Below are positions 38,920 through 43,773 of a DNA stretch of 64,000 nucleotides, in pieces. Made by a program: the position numbers and the translations under genes. Numbering within the stretch: position 1 is the stretch's first letter; the number at the start of each line of letters is the position of its first letter. This DNA comes from Planctomycetota bacterium (lineage in GTDB: Bacteria; Planctomycetota; UBA1135; UBA2386), in contig JBKAGP010000001.1 of assembly GCA_046290465.1 (NCBI GenBank), positions 1,408,001-1,472,000 on the forward strand, read 5' to 3'. The notes beneath the pieces are model-generated. The model was given only the letters and a program-made list of their open reading frames with translations, was not told where the DNA came from and did not search any database.

Positions 38920-40575
38920 ATGGCCGAGAAGAACGAGATCCCTGCGACGACCGAAGCGAGCCCCGCGCCGAGCCGCGCCTGGCTGCTGTTCGGCCTGGTC
39001 GCCGCCGCGGCGCTGCTGCGGCTGCCGCTGCTCGGCCGGCCGATCTGGTTCGACGAAGCCTGCATGTCCGACCAGCGCATCGGCACCACCGCGCAGTGGT
39101 TGGCGACGCTCTACGTCGACATCCACCCGCCGCTGTTCGTGACGTTCATGCACTTCTGGAACGGCCTGTTCGGCGACGGCGAGGTCTCGATGCGGATCCC
39201 GGCGCTGGTCTCCGGTCTCGCGTGCATCCCGCTGACCTGGTGGACCGGCCATCGGCTGGTCGGCGACCGGGCGGCGCTGTTCGCCGCAGTGCTGCTGGCG
39301 CTGTCGCCGGTGCACGTCTGGTACTGCGCCGAAGCGCGCCTCTACGCGCCGATGATGACCTGTGTGCTGTTCGCGTTCGGCTGCGTCGACCGGCTGACCG
39401 CCGCCGACGGCGCGCGCCGCCCTGGCCTGTTCTGGCTGCACACGGCCAACGTCGCGGTGATGCTGGCCCTGCACTACTACCTCGCGGTCGTGGTCGTCGC
39501 GCTGGCGCTGCTGGCACCGATCCTGACGCGCCGCATCGGCGGACGCGCGCGCAGCATCCTGCTGGTGCACGGCATCGGCACGATGCTGCTCGGCGTGTTC
39601 GTGTTCGCCAAGCTGCAGCTCGGCCAGTTCGAGACCAGCCAGGACTACCTGCGCGCGCTCGACGCGGACGAACTGTTCGACTTCCTGTTCGTCTGGACGT
39701 GGACCGGCAACACCATGCAGGCGTCGGGCAGCAGCCTGCTGCGCGGCCTCGGCATCGGCTTCCAGTGGCTCGGCGTGGCGCTGGTCGTGCTCGGCACGAT
39801 CCAGGTGCTGACTAGGCTCCGCTCGCGGCCACGCGCGCTGCTGGTGCCGTTCGGCGTGCTGCTGCTGCCGGGCTTCCTGATCGCCTGCGTGCTGGTCGGC
39901 TACGATAGTACCTACATCTCGCGAACGCTGATCGCCGCGGTGCCGTTCGTGCTGCTGCTGGCCTCCGCCGGCCTGCAGGCGTGGCCCGAACGGTGGCGGC
40001 CGCTCGGTAGTGGCCTGACGCTGCTGCTCGCCGCGACCGCGCTCGGCACCCTCTACGCGACGTTCGACACCCGGTGGACGCTCTACAAGCCGCACCCCGA
40101 CTGGCGCTGTGCGGCCGCCTACCTCGGCTCGGAGATCGACGCCGGCAACGGCGACGCGCCGGTGTTCACGTCGATGCCGAACCCGCGTTCGTTGAGCTAC
40201 TACGACGTGCGCATCCAGGACCGCAAGAACCTCGAGGTGCGGCTGTCGCCCGACGAGATCGCGCGCAAGGTCGAGCAGCGGCTCGGCACGTCGATCGGCC
40301 AGCTCGCCCGCGAGCTGTTCACCGAGTTCGCCGAGCACAACCGCGCGCTGCTCGCCGGCGCCCGGCTGGTGGTGCACCCGAGCCGGCCGACCCCGGAGCA
40401 GCTGGCGCTGCCCGAGGGCTTCGACGGCGCGTTCTACCTGGTCCGCAACGAGTGGCACCCGCACCGCAGCGTCGACGACTCGGTCGAACGGCTGCTCGCG
40501 CATCCGAACATCCAGGTCCTGCACGCCGAACGTTGCACCGGCGTCACCGTCTACAAGGTCCGACGAAAGCAGTGA
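38920..40575 (+). CDS. GT39/ArnT/PMT-like glycosyltransferase
   Basis: IWFDEA, HPPLF, MRIPA, SPVHVWYCAEARLYA. Confidence 0.85.
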   Translation: MAEKNEIPATTEASPAPSRAWLLFGLVAAAALLRLPLLGRPIWFDEACMSDQRIGTTAQWLATLYVDIHPPLFVTFMHFWNGLFGDGEVSMRIPALVSGLACIPLTWWTGHRLVGDRAALFAAVLLALSPVHVWYCAEARLYAPMMTCVLFAFGCVDRLTAADGARRPGLFWLHTANVAVMLALHYYLAVVVVALALLAPILTRRIGGRARSILLVHGIGTMLLGVFVFAKLQLGQFETSQDYLRALDADELFDFLFVWTWTGNTMQASGSSLLRGLGIGFQWLGVALVVLGTIQVLTRLRSRPRALLVPFGVLLLPGFLIACVLVGYDSTYISRTLIAAVPFVLLLASAGLQAWPERWRPLGSGLTLLLAATALGTLYATFDTRWTLYKPHPDWRCAAAYLGSEIDAGNGDAPVFTSMPNPRSLSYYDVRIQDRKNLEVRLSPDEIARKVEQRLGTSIGQLARELFTEFAEHNRALLAGARLVVHPSRPTPEQLALPEGFDGAFYLVRNEWHPHRSVDDSVERLLAHPNIQVLHAERCTGVTVYKVRRKQ

Positions 40576-41375
40576 GCACGTCCAGCAACCAACCGACCGG
40601 GCGCCAGCAGCGCGGCAACGGCTCCTCCGAGACGGTTCCCGAGATCAGCGTCGTGATCGCCTGCTACATGGAGGAGGGCCACCTGGTCGACTCGATCGAG
40701 CAGCTGACCGCGACGCTCGAAGAGATCGGCAAGCCCTACGAACTGATCTTTCTCGAGGACCAGAGCCGAGACCGCACCGCCGAGATCATCCGCGAGCTGT
40801 GCGACGGCCACCCGCATCGCCGCGCCGTCTACCACCAGCAGAACGTCGGCCGCGGCGGCACGGTGACGGAGGGGTTCCTGCTCGCCAGGGGCCGCATCGT
40901 CGGCTTCCTCGACATCGACCTCGAGGTGCACTGCCGCTTCCTGCCGGCGGTGCTGCAGGCGATCGAGCAAGGCGCCGACGGCGCCACCGCCTACCGCCAC
41001 TACGCGGTCGGCTGGCGGCCGACCGCGATCGTGCGCCACATCCTCAGCCAGGGCTATCGCTGGCTGTTCCGCGCGATCTTCGACGTGCCGTTCAAGGACC
41101 CCGAGACCGGCTTCAAGTTCTTCGTGCGCGAACGCATCACCGAGGTCGCGCGCCAGACCAAGGACCAGGGCTGGTTCTGGGACTCGGAGATCATGATCCT
41201 CGCGCACCAGGCCGGCCTGAAGATCACCGAGGTCCCGACGCGCTTCGAACGCCGCGCCGACAAGGCCTCGACGGTGCGCATCTTCCGCGACGTCTGGGCC
41301 TACCTGGTCGCCATCCGCAAGTTCCGCCGCCGCCAGCGCGCCGAGAAGCGGGCGCTGGCGCAGGCTCGTTCCTGA
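40572..41375 (+). CDS. GT2 glycosyltransferase (polyprenol-phosphate glycosyltransferase-like)
   Basis: SVVIACYME, EDQSRDRT, NVGRG, FLDIDL, DPETGFK; GTGA overlap with the upstream gene. Confidence 0.9.
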   Translation: MSTSSNQPTGRQQRGNGSSETVPEISVVIACYMEEGHLVDSIEQLTATLEEIGKPYELIFLEDQSRDRTAEIIRELCDGHPHRRAVYHQQNVGRGGTVTEGFLLARGRIVGFLDIDLEVHCRFLPAVLQAIEQGADGATAYRHYAVGWRPTAIVRHILSQGYRWLFRAIFDVPFKDPETGFKFFVRERITEVARQTKDQGWFWDSEIMILAHQAGLKITEVPTRFERRADKASTVRIFRDVWAYLVAIRKFRRRQRAEKRALAQARS

Positions 41376-41389
41376 ACGCCGCGCGGGGC

Positions 41390-42220
41390 TCAGTTTTCGT
41401 GGTGCGGGCTGTCGAGGCGCGGGCCTTCGATGCCGGGCGTCAGGATCTCCTCGACGTCGAGCACCGCGCAGTGGCAGCCGACGTCGAGCAGCCTCGCAAG
41501 CGACGGGCTGGTGCGCTGTTCGTCGCCGGAGATCCACTCCTTGACGTAGGTGCCGTGCTGGCAGACGACGCGCAGCTCGAGGGTCTGCTCGTCGCGGACG
41601 TCGAGTGCGAGCACGCGCAGGCGGCGCTCGCGCTCGAGGTCGGCACGGCGATGCGCGACGCGCTGCGGTGTGCGCTGCACGATGCCGCCAGCGAACGCAC
41701 GCACCGCGGCCAACCGTTCGTCGCTCGGCATCGACTGGATCGCGACATCGGCGCGGTAGACCTTGTCGAAGTGCGTCTCCTTCCAGTAGACGACGCGCTT
41801 GCGCTCGACGCGCTCGAACGGGGCCAGCTCGATCGCGCCCTCGGCGCGCTGTTCGATGTCGCGGCGCAGCTCTTCGAGGTCGAGGTTGGGGTTGCGCGCG
41901 CCGACCACCTCGAACACGAACGGTCGGCCCTGGCCGAGCATCAGCACGTCGATGTCCTCGCGGCCAGCACCGTGGAACTTGCCGAGTTTGGCCTGCATCT
42001 GCGGCACCATGCGGCGGCCGATCAGCTCCTGGACCGAATCCTTGGTCAGCTTGCCGAAGCCCTCGCAATGCTGGCAGCCGCGGCGGCGCCGGCGGTCGCC
42101 CTTGCACTTGGGGCAGTAGAAGATCGTCTGCGGCAGCCCCCGCCTGAGCTTGCGGTAGCGGCTCTCGAGGTAGAGGTTGCTGCGCGGACGCGGCTTGTCA
42201 TCCGGGACGGACTGGGACAT
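41390..42220 (-). CDS. pus10: tRNA pseudouridine synthase Pus10-like, catalytic domain only
   Basis: RYRKLRRGLPQT, FHGAGREDIDVLMLG-GRPFVFE, QRTPQRVAHRRADL, GTYVKEWISGD..RTSPSL. Confidence 0.88.
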   Translation of the reverse strand: MSQSVPDDKPRPRSNLYLESRYRKLRRGLPQTIFYCPKCKGDRRRRRGCQHCEGFGKLTKDSVQELIGRRMVPQMQAKLGKFHGAGREDIDVLMLGQGRPFVFEVVGARNPNLDLEELRRDIEQRAEGAIELAPFERVERKRVVYWKETHFDKVYRADVAIQSMPSDERLAAVRAFAGGIVQRTPQRVAHRRADLERERRLRVLALDVRDEQTLELRVVCQHGTYVKEWISGDEQRTSPSLARLLDVGCHCAVLDVEEILTPGIEGPRLDSPHHEN

Positions 42221-42278
42221 TCCGCAGAAGCAGACCCGACGCGGGCGCGCCGGGCAAGCTCACGCTGCGCCGGCCTGC

Positions 42279-42704
42279 CTATCGCATCGCCGGGGTGCCG
42301 CCGCTGCGCTCCTGCTTGCGCAGCGCGGAGTTCTTGCGGTCGGTGCGCCGCTCGAGGAAGCGGCCCAGCAGGCCGAAGAACTCCTTCACCGCGATCGGCG
42401 TCTGCACGAACGAGTGGATGTCGTACTTCGACTTGTCGACCGCCATGTCCTTGACGTTGCGCGGCGCCGTCAGCACGAACAGCTCGGTGGTCTTGTCGAA
42501 CGAGCGCAGGTGCTGGAGCACCTTGACGGTGTCCTTCTCGCGCGGGTCGACGCCGAGGAACACGCAGTCGAAGCGCTTGCTGCGCGCCTGGCTGACGCCG
42601 GCATGGCCTTGGCCCACCGTGACGTGGAACTCCTCGAACTGCTGGAGGCCGACCTTCACCTGGTCGCGGATCAACGGGTCCTTCTCGACGAGCAGCACTT
42701 CCAT
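42279..42704 (-). CDS. Stand-alone atypical receiver-domain protein
   Basis: CheY-like pattern VLLVEKD...FDCVFLG...FVLTA...FVQTP. Confidence 0.75.
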   Translation of the reverse strand: MEVLLVEKDPLIRDQVKVGLQQFEEFHVTVGQGHAGVSQARSKRFDCVFLGVDPREKDTVKVLQHLRSFDKTTELFVLTAPRNVKDMAVDKSKYDIHSFVQTPIAVKEFFGLLGRFLERRTDRKNSALRKQERSGGTPAMR

Positions 42705-42807
42705 GGCTCGGGTATCGGCAGTTCGCGGCGACCTTTGGAGCGGTGCTGCCCAGATCGCGTTGGCATCGTGACTTGACGGTCGACCCGCGTTGGGCTGTCG
42801 TGCCGGG

Positions 42808-43773
42808 GTGAACTACCTCGCCGGCGTCGACGAAGCAGGCCTCGGCCCGATCCTCGGTCCGCTGGTGGTCGGCGGCGTCACGATGGCCGGCCCCGAGGGC
42901 ACCGCGCCTTGGCGGCTGCTGCAGCGTCACGTCAGCAAGCTCAAGCACGTCAAGGGCAAGGTCCGCGTCGCCGACAGCAAGAAGGTCAACTCGGGTCCGC
43001 ACGGGTTTCGGCGGCTCGAGGAGACCGCGCTGGTGTTCTGGACCGCGCTGCACGGCGAGCCGCCGGTGTCGCTGGCCGACTGGCTGCTGACCCTCGGCCA
43101 CGACCTCGAACCGCTGCGTCGCTGCCCGTGGTACGAGGGCCTGTCGCTGCAGCTGCCGCGCGTCGCCGACCGCGACTGGCTGTCGCTGACCGGCGAACTG
43201 GTCGCCCGCGCGCTGCGCAAGGGGGACACCGAACTGCTCGACATCGCCGTTCGCGCGGTCGACGTCGAGGAGTGGAACGTGCTGATCGCCGACACCGACA
43301 ACAAGAGCAAGGCCCACTTCCACGCCTACAGCGAGGTGCTCGGCGACCTGGTCGGCCGGCTGCTGCCGCGCATCGGTGCCGACGACGCCTGCCAACTGGT
43401 CGCCGACCGTTGTGGCGGCCGCATGCACTACCGCAACGACCTGGCGCGGCTGTTCCCGGCGGCCGACGTGCGCATCGTCGACGAGCGACCGAGCCGTTCG
43501 ACCTACCGCCTGCGCCGGGACCAGCGCGACGTCACCGTGACGTTCGCCGAGCGCGCCGAGGACCGCGCGTTCCCGACCGCGCTGGCCAGCTGCTTTGCCA
43601 AGTACCTGCGCGAGCTGATGGTCGAGTGCCTCAACAGCTGGTTCCGTTCGCGCGTGCCGGACCTCAAGCCGACGGCCGGCTACTACGTCGACGGCCACCG
43701 CTTCCTCGACGACATCCAGCCGCAGATCGACGAACTCGCGCTGCCCCGCCACCGGCTCGTGCGCGTTCGCTGA
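42808..43773 (+). CDS. Ribonuclease HII-like protein, long form
   Basis: GVDEAGLGPILGPLVV, DSKK, ALASCFAKYLRE, GY. Confidence 0.8.
   Translation: MNYLAGVDEAGLGPILGPLVVGGVTMAGPEGTAPWRLLQRHVSKLKHVKGKVRVADSKKVNSGPHGFRRLEETALVFWTALHGEPPVSLADWLLTLGHDLEPLRRCPWYEGLSLQLPRVADRDWLSLTGELVARALRKGDTELLDIAVRAVDVEEWNVLIADTDNKSKAHFHAYSEVLGDLVGRLLPRIGADDACQLVADRCGGRMHYRNDLARLFPAADVRIVDERPSRSTYRLRRDQRDVTVTFAERAEDRAFPTALASCFAKYLRELMVECLNSWFRSRVPDLKPTAGYYVDGHRFLDDIQPQIDELALPRHRLVRVR

Follow-up and report, generated by a model that had tools for sequence, protein, structure and literature searches.

A Pus10 catalytic domain without THUMP as the predicted tRNA pseudouridine-55 synthase of a planctomycete lineage lacking TruB

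The window analysed here is a stretch of 64,000 nucleotides from a Planctomycetota bacterium (GTDB lineage Bacteria; Planctomycetota; UBA1135; UBA2386), corresponding to positions 1,408,001 to 1,472,000 of contig JBKAGP010000001.1 in assembly GCA_046290465.1. It carries on its reverse strand a gene for a 276-amino-acid protein that consists of the catalytic domain of the tRNA pseudouridine synthase Pus10 and lacks the N-terminal THUMP region of that family. The host genome is one contig of 6.59 Mb (6,594,045 bp), on which the public gene call (P0122) also gives 276 amino acids for this protein. Pseudouridine (Psi) at position 55 of tRNA is among the most conserved RNA modifications, and textbooks assign it to TruB in Bacteria and to Pus10 in Archaea and in some eukaryotes. 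Reviews of 2021 and 2025 describe Pus10 as absent from Bacteria. Judging from gene content and conserved residues, the short Pus10 of the window is likely to be a Psi55 synthase that stands in for the absent TruB.

The boundaries of the gene and the positions of its motifs are given in Table 1. With an in-frame TGA 14 codons before its start, the gene has no space for an N-terminal domain, and 58 bp separate it from the upstream gene of the same strand, whose end is at 42279. Both features had been described in an earlier interpretation made from the letters of the window (the sequence-only reading), and both were confirmed on the sequence. The native codon usage proposed there was borne out as well, with a GC content of 0.69 in the gene against 0.70 in the genome, and a GC content at third codon positions (GC3) of 0.92 against 0.92-0.97 in the neighbouring genes.

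Table 1. Positions in the window of the Pus10 gene, its conserved motifs and its neighbours
Feature	Position	Strand	Remarks
THUMP-less Pus10 gene (catalytic domain only)	41390..42220	-	ATG start, 276 amino acids; identified by Pus10_C, TIGR01213, AlphaFold2 and Foldseek
In-frame TGA 5' of the ATG	42260..42262	-	13 sense codons between; stop-to-stop frame of 289 amino acids
Catalytic motif HGAGREDID, residues 83-91 (R87, D89, D91)	41948..41974	-	Columns invariant in alignments A1 and A2; codons checked
Forefinger loop CPKC-KGDRRRRRG-CQHC, residues 36-52	42065..42115	-	Aligns to C227/C230/C235/C238 of M. jannaschii Pus10 (ffl1/ffl2 region)
Thumb loop QRTPQRVAHRRAD, residues 182-194, with H190-R191 "hook"	41639..41677	-	Aligns to H376-R377 of M. 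jannaschii Pus10
GTYVKE, residues 223-228	41537..41554	-	V226/K227 correspond to I412/K413 of M. jannaschii Pus10
Stand-alone response-regulator receiver domain, 141 amino acids	42279..42704	-	Pfam Response_reg, 34 bits; upstream
RNase HII-like gene, 327 amino acids, divergent	42790..43773	+	Pfam RNase_HII, 39.9 bits, partial (residues 239-302)
Family-2 glycosyltransferase, convergent downstream	40074..41375	+	Glycos_transf_2, 78.6 bits, residues 192-328; true start probably later

Membership of the protein in the Pus10 family was established by profile searches. The Pfam model Pus10_C (PF21238) matched residues 17-259 with an E-value of 9.3e-56 and 189.4 bits (cut-off 27), covering positions 1-231 of its 232, and the NCBIfam model TIGR01213, tRNA pseudouridine(54/55) synthase Pus10, matched with an E-value of 5.6e-78 and 262.6 bits (cut-off 200). 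The latter match was confined to model positions 160-401 of 402, so that nothing in the protein corresponds to the initial ~160 positions of an ordinary Pus10. The next-best families were Cbf5/TruB models, of which those for Cbf5 gave 23 bits (cut-off 242) and 15.6 bits (cut-off 238), and no TruB family was present among the Pfam matches of the protein at E<=1. The profile search by which the sequence-only reading had proposed to check its assignment therefore returned Pus10 as the best match and no other pseudouridine synthase family. Among solved structures, the only strong relative by sequence was human PUS10 (2v9k; E 6.5e-23, residues 313-520). The AlphaFold2 model of the protein, computed from an alignment of 31 sequences, had a mean predicted local distance difference test score (pLDDT) of 93.8 and a predicted TM-score (pTM) of 0.88, and its forefinger and thumb regions were modelled at pLDDT 83-97. 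The best Foldseek match of this model was again human PUS10 2v9k, with an E-value of 1e-22, a query-normalised TM-score (TMq) of 0.78 and a root-mean-square deviation of 1.9 Å; the target-normalised TM-score was just 0.47, because half of human PUS10 has no counterpart in the window protein. TruA was next (E 4.6e-7), and the TruA and TruB structures matched with E-values of 5e-7 and worse and TMq of 0.35-0.53. These results confirmed that the window protein is an intact Pus10 catalytic domain standing alone.

The residues of the active site were compared in an alignment of eight rows (A2), comprising the window protein, two short relatives and the Iainarchaeum, Methanocaldococcus, Methanolobus, Bipolaricaulota and THUMP-bearing planctomycete homologues. 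The Methanocaldococcus row reproduces the numbering of Methanocaldococcus jannaschii Pus10 (MjPus10) in Joardar et al. 2013 (PMC3753934), from which the mutational data on that enzyme are taken here. Seven core residues of MjPus10 were mutated in that study, namely R273, D275, D277, Y339, I412, K413, and L440, and in A2 they correspond to R87, D89 (the catalytic Asp), D91, Y155, V226, K227, and L254 of the window protein, respectively. Across 31 planctomycete sequences with a mean column identity of 41%, 31 columns were invariant. In alignment A1 the invariant positions included Q182, P185, R187, V188, and R192 of the thumb loop, as well as G223, Y225, K227, E228, and L254. All of the signature blocks named in the sequence-only reading were found in the frame: HGAGREDID with D89, GRPF, QRTPQRVAHRRAD, GTYVKEWISGDEQRTSPSL, and CPKC...CQHC. 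The last of these had been taken for an insert; it is in fact the conserved four-cysteine motif of the Pus10 forefinger loop, Methanocaldococcus included, and was present in all eight rows of A2, while among the 31 planctomycete sequences C39, C49, and C52 were invariant and C36 was conserved in at least 90%. Deletion of the forefinger loop segments ffl1 (C227-R231) or ffl2 (C238-V249) abolishes the Psi54 activity of MjPus10 (PMC3753934), and the equivalents of both are kept in the window protein. Its spacer between the two CxxC pairs is KGDRRRRRG, which includes a stretch of five arginines; the median spacer was 9 residues with 5 Lys or Arg in the 31 rows of the short clade, against 4 residues with 1-2 Lys or Arg in the other groups. 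A compensation of THUMP loss by net charge was considered and rejected, since the domain median of 9 in the short forms did not differ clearly from the values of 7, 10, 14.5, and 5 elsewhere. The poly-basic insertion in the forefinger was the sole charge feature that set the short forms apart.

The lack of the N-terminal THUMP region, which the sequence-only reading had proposed, extended from the gene to 30 other frames of the clade and to the rest of the genome. Pfam found neither a THUMP-type domain nor Pus10_THUMP_arc in the window protein, and the N-terminal zinc-binding cysteine pairs, represented by C31, C34, C106, and C109 in MjPus10 (PMC3753934), were missing together with the whole region (positions 1-159 of TIGR01213 unmatched). 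In the host genome the general THUMP model gave just two matches, both fused to RlmL/Trm14-like methyltransferases, and the Pus10-specific THUMP model PF22023 gave nothing at E<=1. A custom profile was built from the stretch that precedes the catalytic domain in THUMP-bearing Pus10 (up to 23 sequences); searched against 51,421 six-frame open reading frames of the host genome, its best E-value was 0.32. As a control, the same profile was run on held-out frames, where it matched all 10 of the planctomycete Pus10 that do not belong to the short clade (E-values between 8e-16 and 5e-3) as well as 46 from archaea. It matched none of the 30 short-clade frames, and Pfam found no THUMP in the 11 short-clade members whose frames were long enough for an extra domain. 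Among proteins of 484-2000 amino acids there was no close relative, the best being of archaeal type with 46% identity. Within the host order, 61 of the 115 whole matches lay in stop-to-stop frames of at most 320 amino acids and 43 in frames of at most 300. All 58 archaeal open frames examined had room for the N-terminal ~150-200 residues, except those of Iainarchaeota, with ~90 residues. The Pus10 of these DPANN archaea (L059, L060, L064, L071, L091) has just ~340-390 amino acids, with a weak THUMP match in the ~90 residues before the catalytic domain and no room for the zinc ribbon, which is an intermediate architecture. At the other extreme of length, many Pus10 of marine archaea of the Poseidoniales type (560-605 amino acids; among P0137-P0252) carry an additional N-terminal SAP domain (PF02037) before THUMP.

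TruB was absent from the host genome by every search made. TIGR00431 (TruB) gave no match, the best match of PF01509 was an unrelated frame with an E-value of 0.1, and tblastn of the host genome with all open reading frames of four planctomycete TruB loci gave neither TruB nor a conserved flank. The same kind of search found one TruA and nine RluA/RsuA-type synthases, which indicates that the method works on this genome. Across the host order, Pus10_C was present in 119 of 121 genomes (61/61 of high quality, 75/75 genera), with no internal stops in the matches, and TruB in none of the 121; the intact frame in these 119 genomes ruled out a pseudogene or an annotation artefact. At the level of the class, of which the sample holds one order only, 150 of 151 genomes had Pus10_C. 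Together with the native composition, this distribution bore out the proposal that the gene is a long-term resident.

The sample of the phylum Planctomycetota comprised 301 genomes. A Pus10_C match occurred in 54, from which 5 weak partial ones were dropped (all in TruB-bearing genomes, 2 of the 5 overlapping the TruB gene itself), so that 49 genomes with full-length Pus10_C remained. TruB was present in 149, of which 147 had it without Pus10_C. Beyond this phylum, Candidatus Bipolaricaulota had Pus10_C in 79 of 81 genomes and TruB in none of the 81, and its Pus10 is full length with a PF22023 THUMP match of 66-71 bits. Thus, the presence of Pus10 accompanies the absence of TruB in the host class, in other planctomycete families, and in Bipolaricaulota, and the pattern of gene presence and absence, with no TruB in the closed genome and none in the order, lends strong support to the suggestion of the sequence-only reading that the enzyme may stand in for TruB. 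When bacterial and archaeal species were each represented by a single genome, a scan confirmed 576 relatives, and among the best 80 of these the bacteria were Planctomycetota and three Candidatus Bipolaricaulota, the remainder being archaeal with 38-46% identity. The close relatives come from sources named as metagenome-assembled genomes of Planctomycetota or Planctomycetes; some are labelled tRNA pseudouridine(54/55) synthase Pus10 by the NCBI pipeline, and many are labelled hypothetical protein.

The presumed substrate was represented in the host genome by 58 tRNA calls of aragorn, of which ~43 had perfect acceptor and T stems. All of these ~43 well-formed genes had the T-loop TTC[AG]A, that is U54, U55, C56, R57, and A58. 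The 3' CCA is encoded in nearly all of the well-formed genes. About 14 of the 58 calls were 80-96 nucleotides long with badly paired stems and non-canonical T-loops, and are probably false positives. As to position 54, TrmFO was not found in the host genome, the sole match being MnmG, and no host protein passed the TrmA cut-off. TrmY methylates Psi54 in archaea and accompanies Psi54 in many of them; no match to its family (PF04013) was found in the host genome. Three RlmD/RumA-like 5-methyluridine (m5U) methyltransferases were present (L120-L122, at 6056493-6057008, 2337372-2337596, and 4374834-4375040 of the genome). According to a review (PMC7912444), an RlmD/RumA-type enzyme makes m5U54 in some archaea, and by analogy one of the RlmD-like methyltransferases of the host may act on U54 of tRNA.

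On these data we propose that the stand-alone catalytic domain would be active as a T-loop pseudouridine synthase and would make Psi55 in place of TruB. The forefinger loop, with its Cys4 knuckle and poly-Arg insertion, and the thumb loop, with H190-R191-R192, would clamp the T stem-loop; R87 would help to flip the target uridine into the pocket formed by Y155, V226, and L254, and D89, salt-bridged to K227, would catalyse the isomerisation. Recognition would be achieved by way of the T-arm alone, with no THUMP reading the acceptor/CCA end, and affinity once provided by THUMP may now come from the arginines inserted in the forefinger knuckle. Activity without THUMP is plausible, since for either of its reactions the smallest substrate of MjPus10 is a 17-mer T stem-loop (PMC3753934). 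Archaeal Pus10 produces Psi55 and, in some species, Psi54 (PMC7912444). Since the long forefinger loop of M. jannaschii type and the His-Arg hook, which are needed for Psi54, are kept, U54 may be modified as well as U55, although we regard the additional Psi54 activity as doubtful. As to its history, the short form probably arose through loss of the THUMP region in a THUMP-bearing bacterial Pus10 that had itself been acquired from Archaea; the presence of THUMP-bearing Pus10 in other planctomycete families suggests such a secondary loss.

Several observations weigh against this proposal, in its functional as well as its evolutionary part. Neither TruB nor Pus10_C was found in 105 of the 301 sampled Planctomycetota (G005, G006, G011, G012, and G014 among them); for the 191 genomes with a completeness of 90% or more, the number is 60. 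In five of the 105 a repeated search with PF01509 at E<=1 again gave nothing. Planctomycetota thus apparently manage with neither enzyme, and the loss of TruB is common among them and does not require Pus10. The 105 either lack Psi55 or make it with a third, unrecognised enzyme. Conversely, 2 of the 49 Pus10-bearing Planctomycetota (G042, G069) had both enzymes. Presences and absences across related genomes are, moreover, not independent observations. On the side of mechanism, the activity of MjPus10 mutants was more fragile on the bare T stem-loop than on whole tRNA (PMC3753934), so the loss of THUMP could cost affinity or specificity. The last point of this kind comes from the trees, in which the short clade adjoined Iainarchaeota (Shimodaira-Hasegawa-like approximate likelihood ratio test, SH-aLRT, 97), apart from the other planctomycete Pus10; this placement would mean a separate transfer and not a loss from a planctomycete ancestor. 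The two genomes with both enzymes belong to family f45 (L015, L018) and carry a THUMP-bearing Pus10; at 86% completeness and 3-4% contamination, they may represent real co-occurrence or contamination of the bins.

The trees were quick maximum-likelihood trees of the catalytic domain with 111 and 47 rows, without an outgroup and without eukaryotic sequences. The set of 47 rows was chosen after the tree had been seen, leaving out 64 of the 111, and contained 11 short, 11 other planctomycete, 3 Bipolaricaulota, 5 Iainarchaeota, and 17 other archaeal sequences. The short forms made up one clade in both trees, with 31 rows and SH-aLRT 100 in the larger and 11/11 in the smaller. The THUMP-bearing planctomycete and Bipolaricaulota sequences grouped with Thermoplasmatota-type sequences (SH-aLRT 94). 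In an approximately unbiased test on the 47 rows, a single planctomycete clade, a group named after the tree had been seen, was not rejected (log-likelihood difference 26.6, p 0.173). As far as these sequences go, both origins are possible: one transfer from Archaea to Bacteria followed by loss of THUMP, or separate transfers. Most likely, loss of TruB, perhaps on several occasions, left a gap that Pus10 filled in some lineages, although counts of enzyme presence and absence cannot give the order of TruB loss and Pus10 gain.

Of the genes around the short Pus10, the divergent RNase HII-like gene was the most conserved, with a homologue at the corresponding position and in the corresponding orientation in 17 of the 20 short-clade loci compared; the N-terminal two thirds of its product lie outside the RNase_HII match. 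A homologue of the upstream receiver domain was present in 8 of the 20 loci, and the glycosyltransferase was kept in the 3-5 closest loci only. None of the conserved neighbours in these 20 loci suggested an RNA-binding partner.

The alternative nearest to our proposal, which it would refine more than exclude, is that the protein acts at two sites like M. jannaschii Pus10, with Psi54 and Psi55 replacing T54-Psi55. The long forefinger loop, Y155, L254, and H190-R191 are all kept, and loss of their counterparts abolishes or lowers Psi54 formation in MjPus10 (PMC3753934); the lack of TrmFO and of any protein above the TrmA cut-off in the host points in the same direction. Given the three RlmD/RumA-like methyltransferases, however, these bacteria may still form T54, which would compete, TrmY is missing, and Psi54 is more easily perturbed than Psi55 in MjPus10 (PMC3753934), for which the loss of THUMP would be a large perturbation. 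On this balance we think the dual activity rather unlikely. A more radical possibility is that the enzyme changed its target after losing THUMP, to rRNA, tmRNA, mRNA, or another T-loop-like RNA, and that these bacteria have no Psi55. Apart from the missing THUMP itself, this would agree with the 105 Planctomycetota that have neither enzyme, in view of which Psi55 synthases appear dispensable in the phylum. Yet every residue and loop of archaeal Pus10 for T-loop recognition and catalysis is conserved, a T stem-loop alone suffices for MjPus10 (PMC3753934), and near-universal Pus10_C in the class with no TruB in the order fits replacement; nor was a Pus10 with a main substrate other than a T-loop found described in the available parts of the literature. 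A change of target is accordingly improbable in our judgement.

The function of THUMP might also be supplied in trans by a separate RNA-binding partner, a need for which the sequence-only reading had raised. As a rule, tRNA pseudouridine synthases possess accessory RNA-binding domains, which argues for a partner by analogy only, and the receiver-domain and RNase HII-like genes recur beside the short Pus10; neither of them, however, is an RNA-binding module of the THUMP kind. The genome-wide searches with PF22023 and the custom profile left no Pus10-type THUMP elsewhere, the sole two THUMP matches are parts of methyltransferases, and the proteins of 484-2000 amino acids included no longer, fused version of a short-clade Pus10. 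As the neighbours include neither a THUMP nor an RNA-binding protein and the genome searches gave no separate THUMP, the earlier suggestion found no support, and we rate a partner as slightly less probable even than a changed target. Least credible of all is a protein without catalysis, whether a remnant that has become inactive or one that only binds RNA or acts as a chaperone. Nothing specific speaks for it, except that TruB is reported as a chaperone beside its catalysis (PMC7912444). Across the 31 diverged planctomycete sequences there is no variation in the catalytic Asp and its partners, the gene is intact throughout nearly the whole order, and the fold is predicted with high confidence, so that we consider this explanation highly improbable.

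A stronger version of the proposal combines its separate parts: a whole class would rely on a THUMP-less Pus10 of 276 amino acids that recognises the T-arm only, modifies both U54 and U55, and came from a separate transfer from DPANN-like archaea. We hold this combination to be unlikely, somewhat more so than the dual activity by itself. If true, these bacteria would have an archaeal-style Psi54-Psi55 T-loop without m5U54, and the transfer would be separate from those by which other Planctomycetota and Bipolaricaulota obtained their THUMP-bearing Pus10.

Having Pus10 and lacking TruB, the planctomycete class and, separately, the phylum Bipolaricaulota would be a clean case in which an archaeal gene has taken over from a near-universal bacterial gene to which it is not orthologous. 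The short form of the planctomycetes is in addition a natural minimal Pus10, which bears on how THUMP contributes to tRNA recognition and to the selection of U54 or U55. A practical consequence arises as well, because TIGR00431 serves as a universal bacterial marker and the lineage-wide absence of TruB lowers the completeness estimates of such genomes. A full-text search, whose coverage left most subscription journals outside, found no characterised THUMP-less or bacterial Pus10; an earlier characterisation of a THUMP-less bacterial Pus10 was among the findings that the sequence-only reading had named as refuting it.

Among known systems, archaeal Pus10 such as that of M. jannaschii is the closest in its catalytic domain, which aligns end to end with the window protein at 39-46% identity and shares its core residues, the four-cysteine forefinger loop, and the His-Arg thumb hook; the window protein also exceeds the NCBI equivalog cut-off of the archaeal enzyme. 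The differences are that archaeal Pus10 outside Iainarchaeota has room for a zinc ribbon and THUMP in its N-terminal ~150-200 residues, both of which the window protein lacks, that it has no poly-Arg insertion in the forefinger, and that the host of the window protein is a bacterium. Human PUS10 (2v9k) is more distant, with 28% identity over 252 columns, and its 530 amino acids include a large N-terminal accessory domain, THUMP included, which is absent from the window protein. The THUMP-bearing Pus10 of other Planctomycetota and of Bipolaricaulota are likewise bacterial, are 32-42% identical in the catalytic domain, and nearly exclude TruB in the same way. They lie elsewhere in the tree than the short clade, and the planctomycete ones keep the THUMP region, which was below the Pfam threshold in 10 of 18 frames (17-25.5 bits) and clear with the custom profile. 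Bacterial TruB (TIGR00431) is the counterpart in proposed function, as it forms the Psi55 of the T-loop and recognises chiefly the T stem-loop, and it resembles the window protein in size, being a single domain with a small extension. It nevertheless belongs to a different pseudouridine synthase family, and the window protein matches the Cbf5/TruB models with just 15-23 bits and TruB structures with a TMq of ~0.4.

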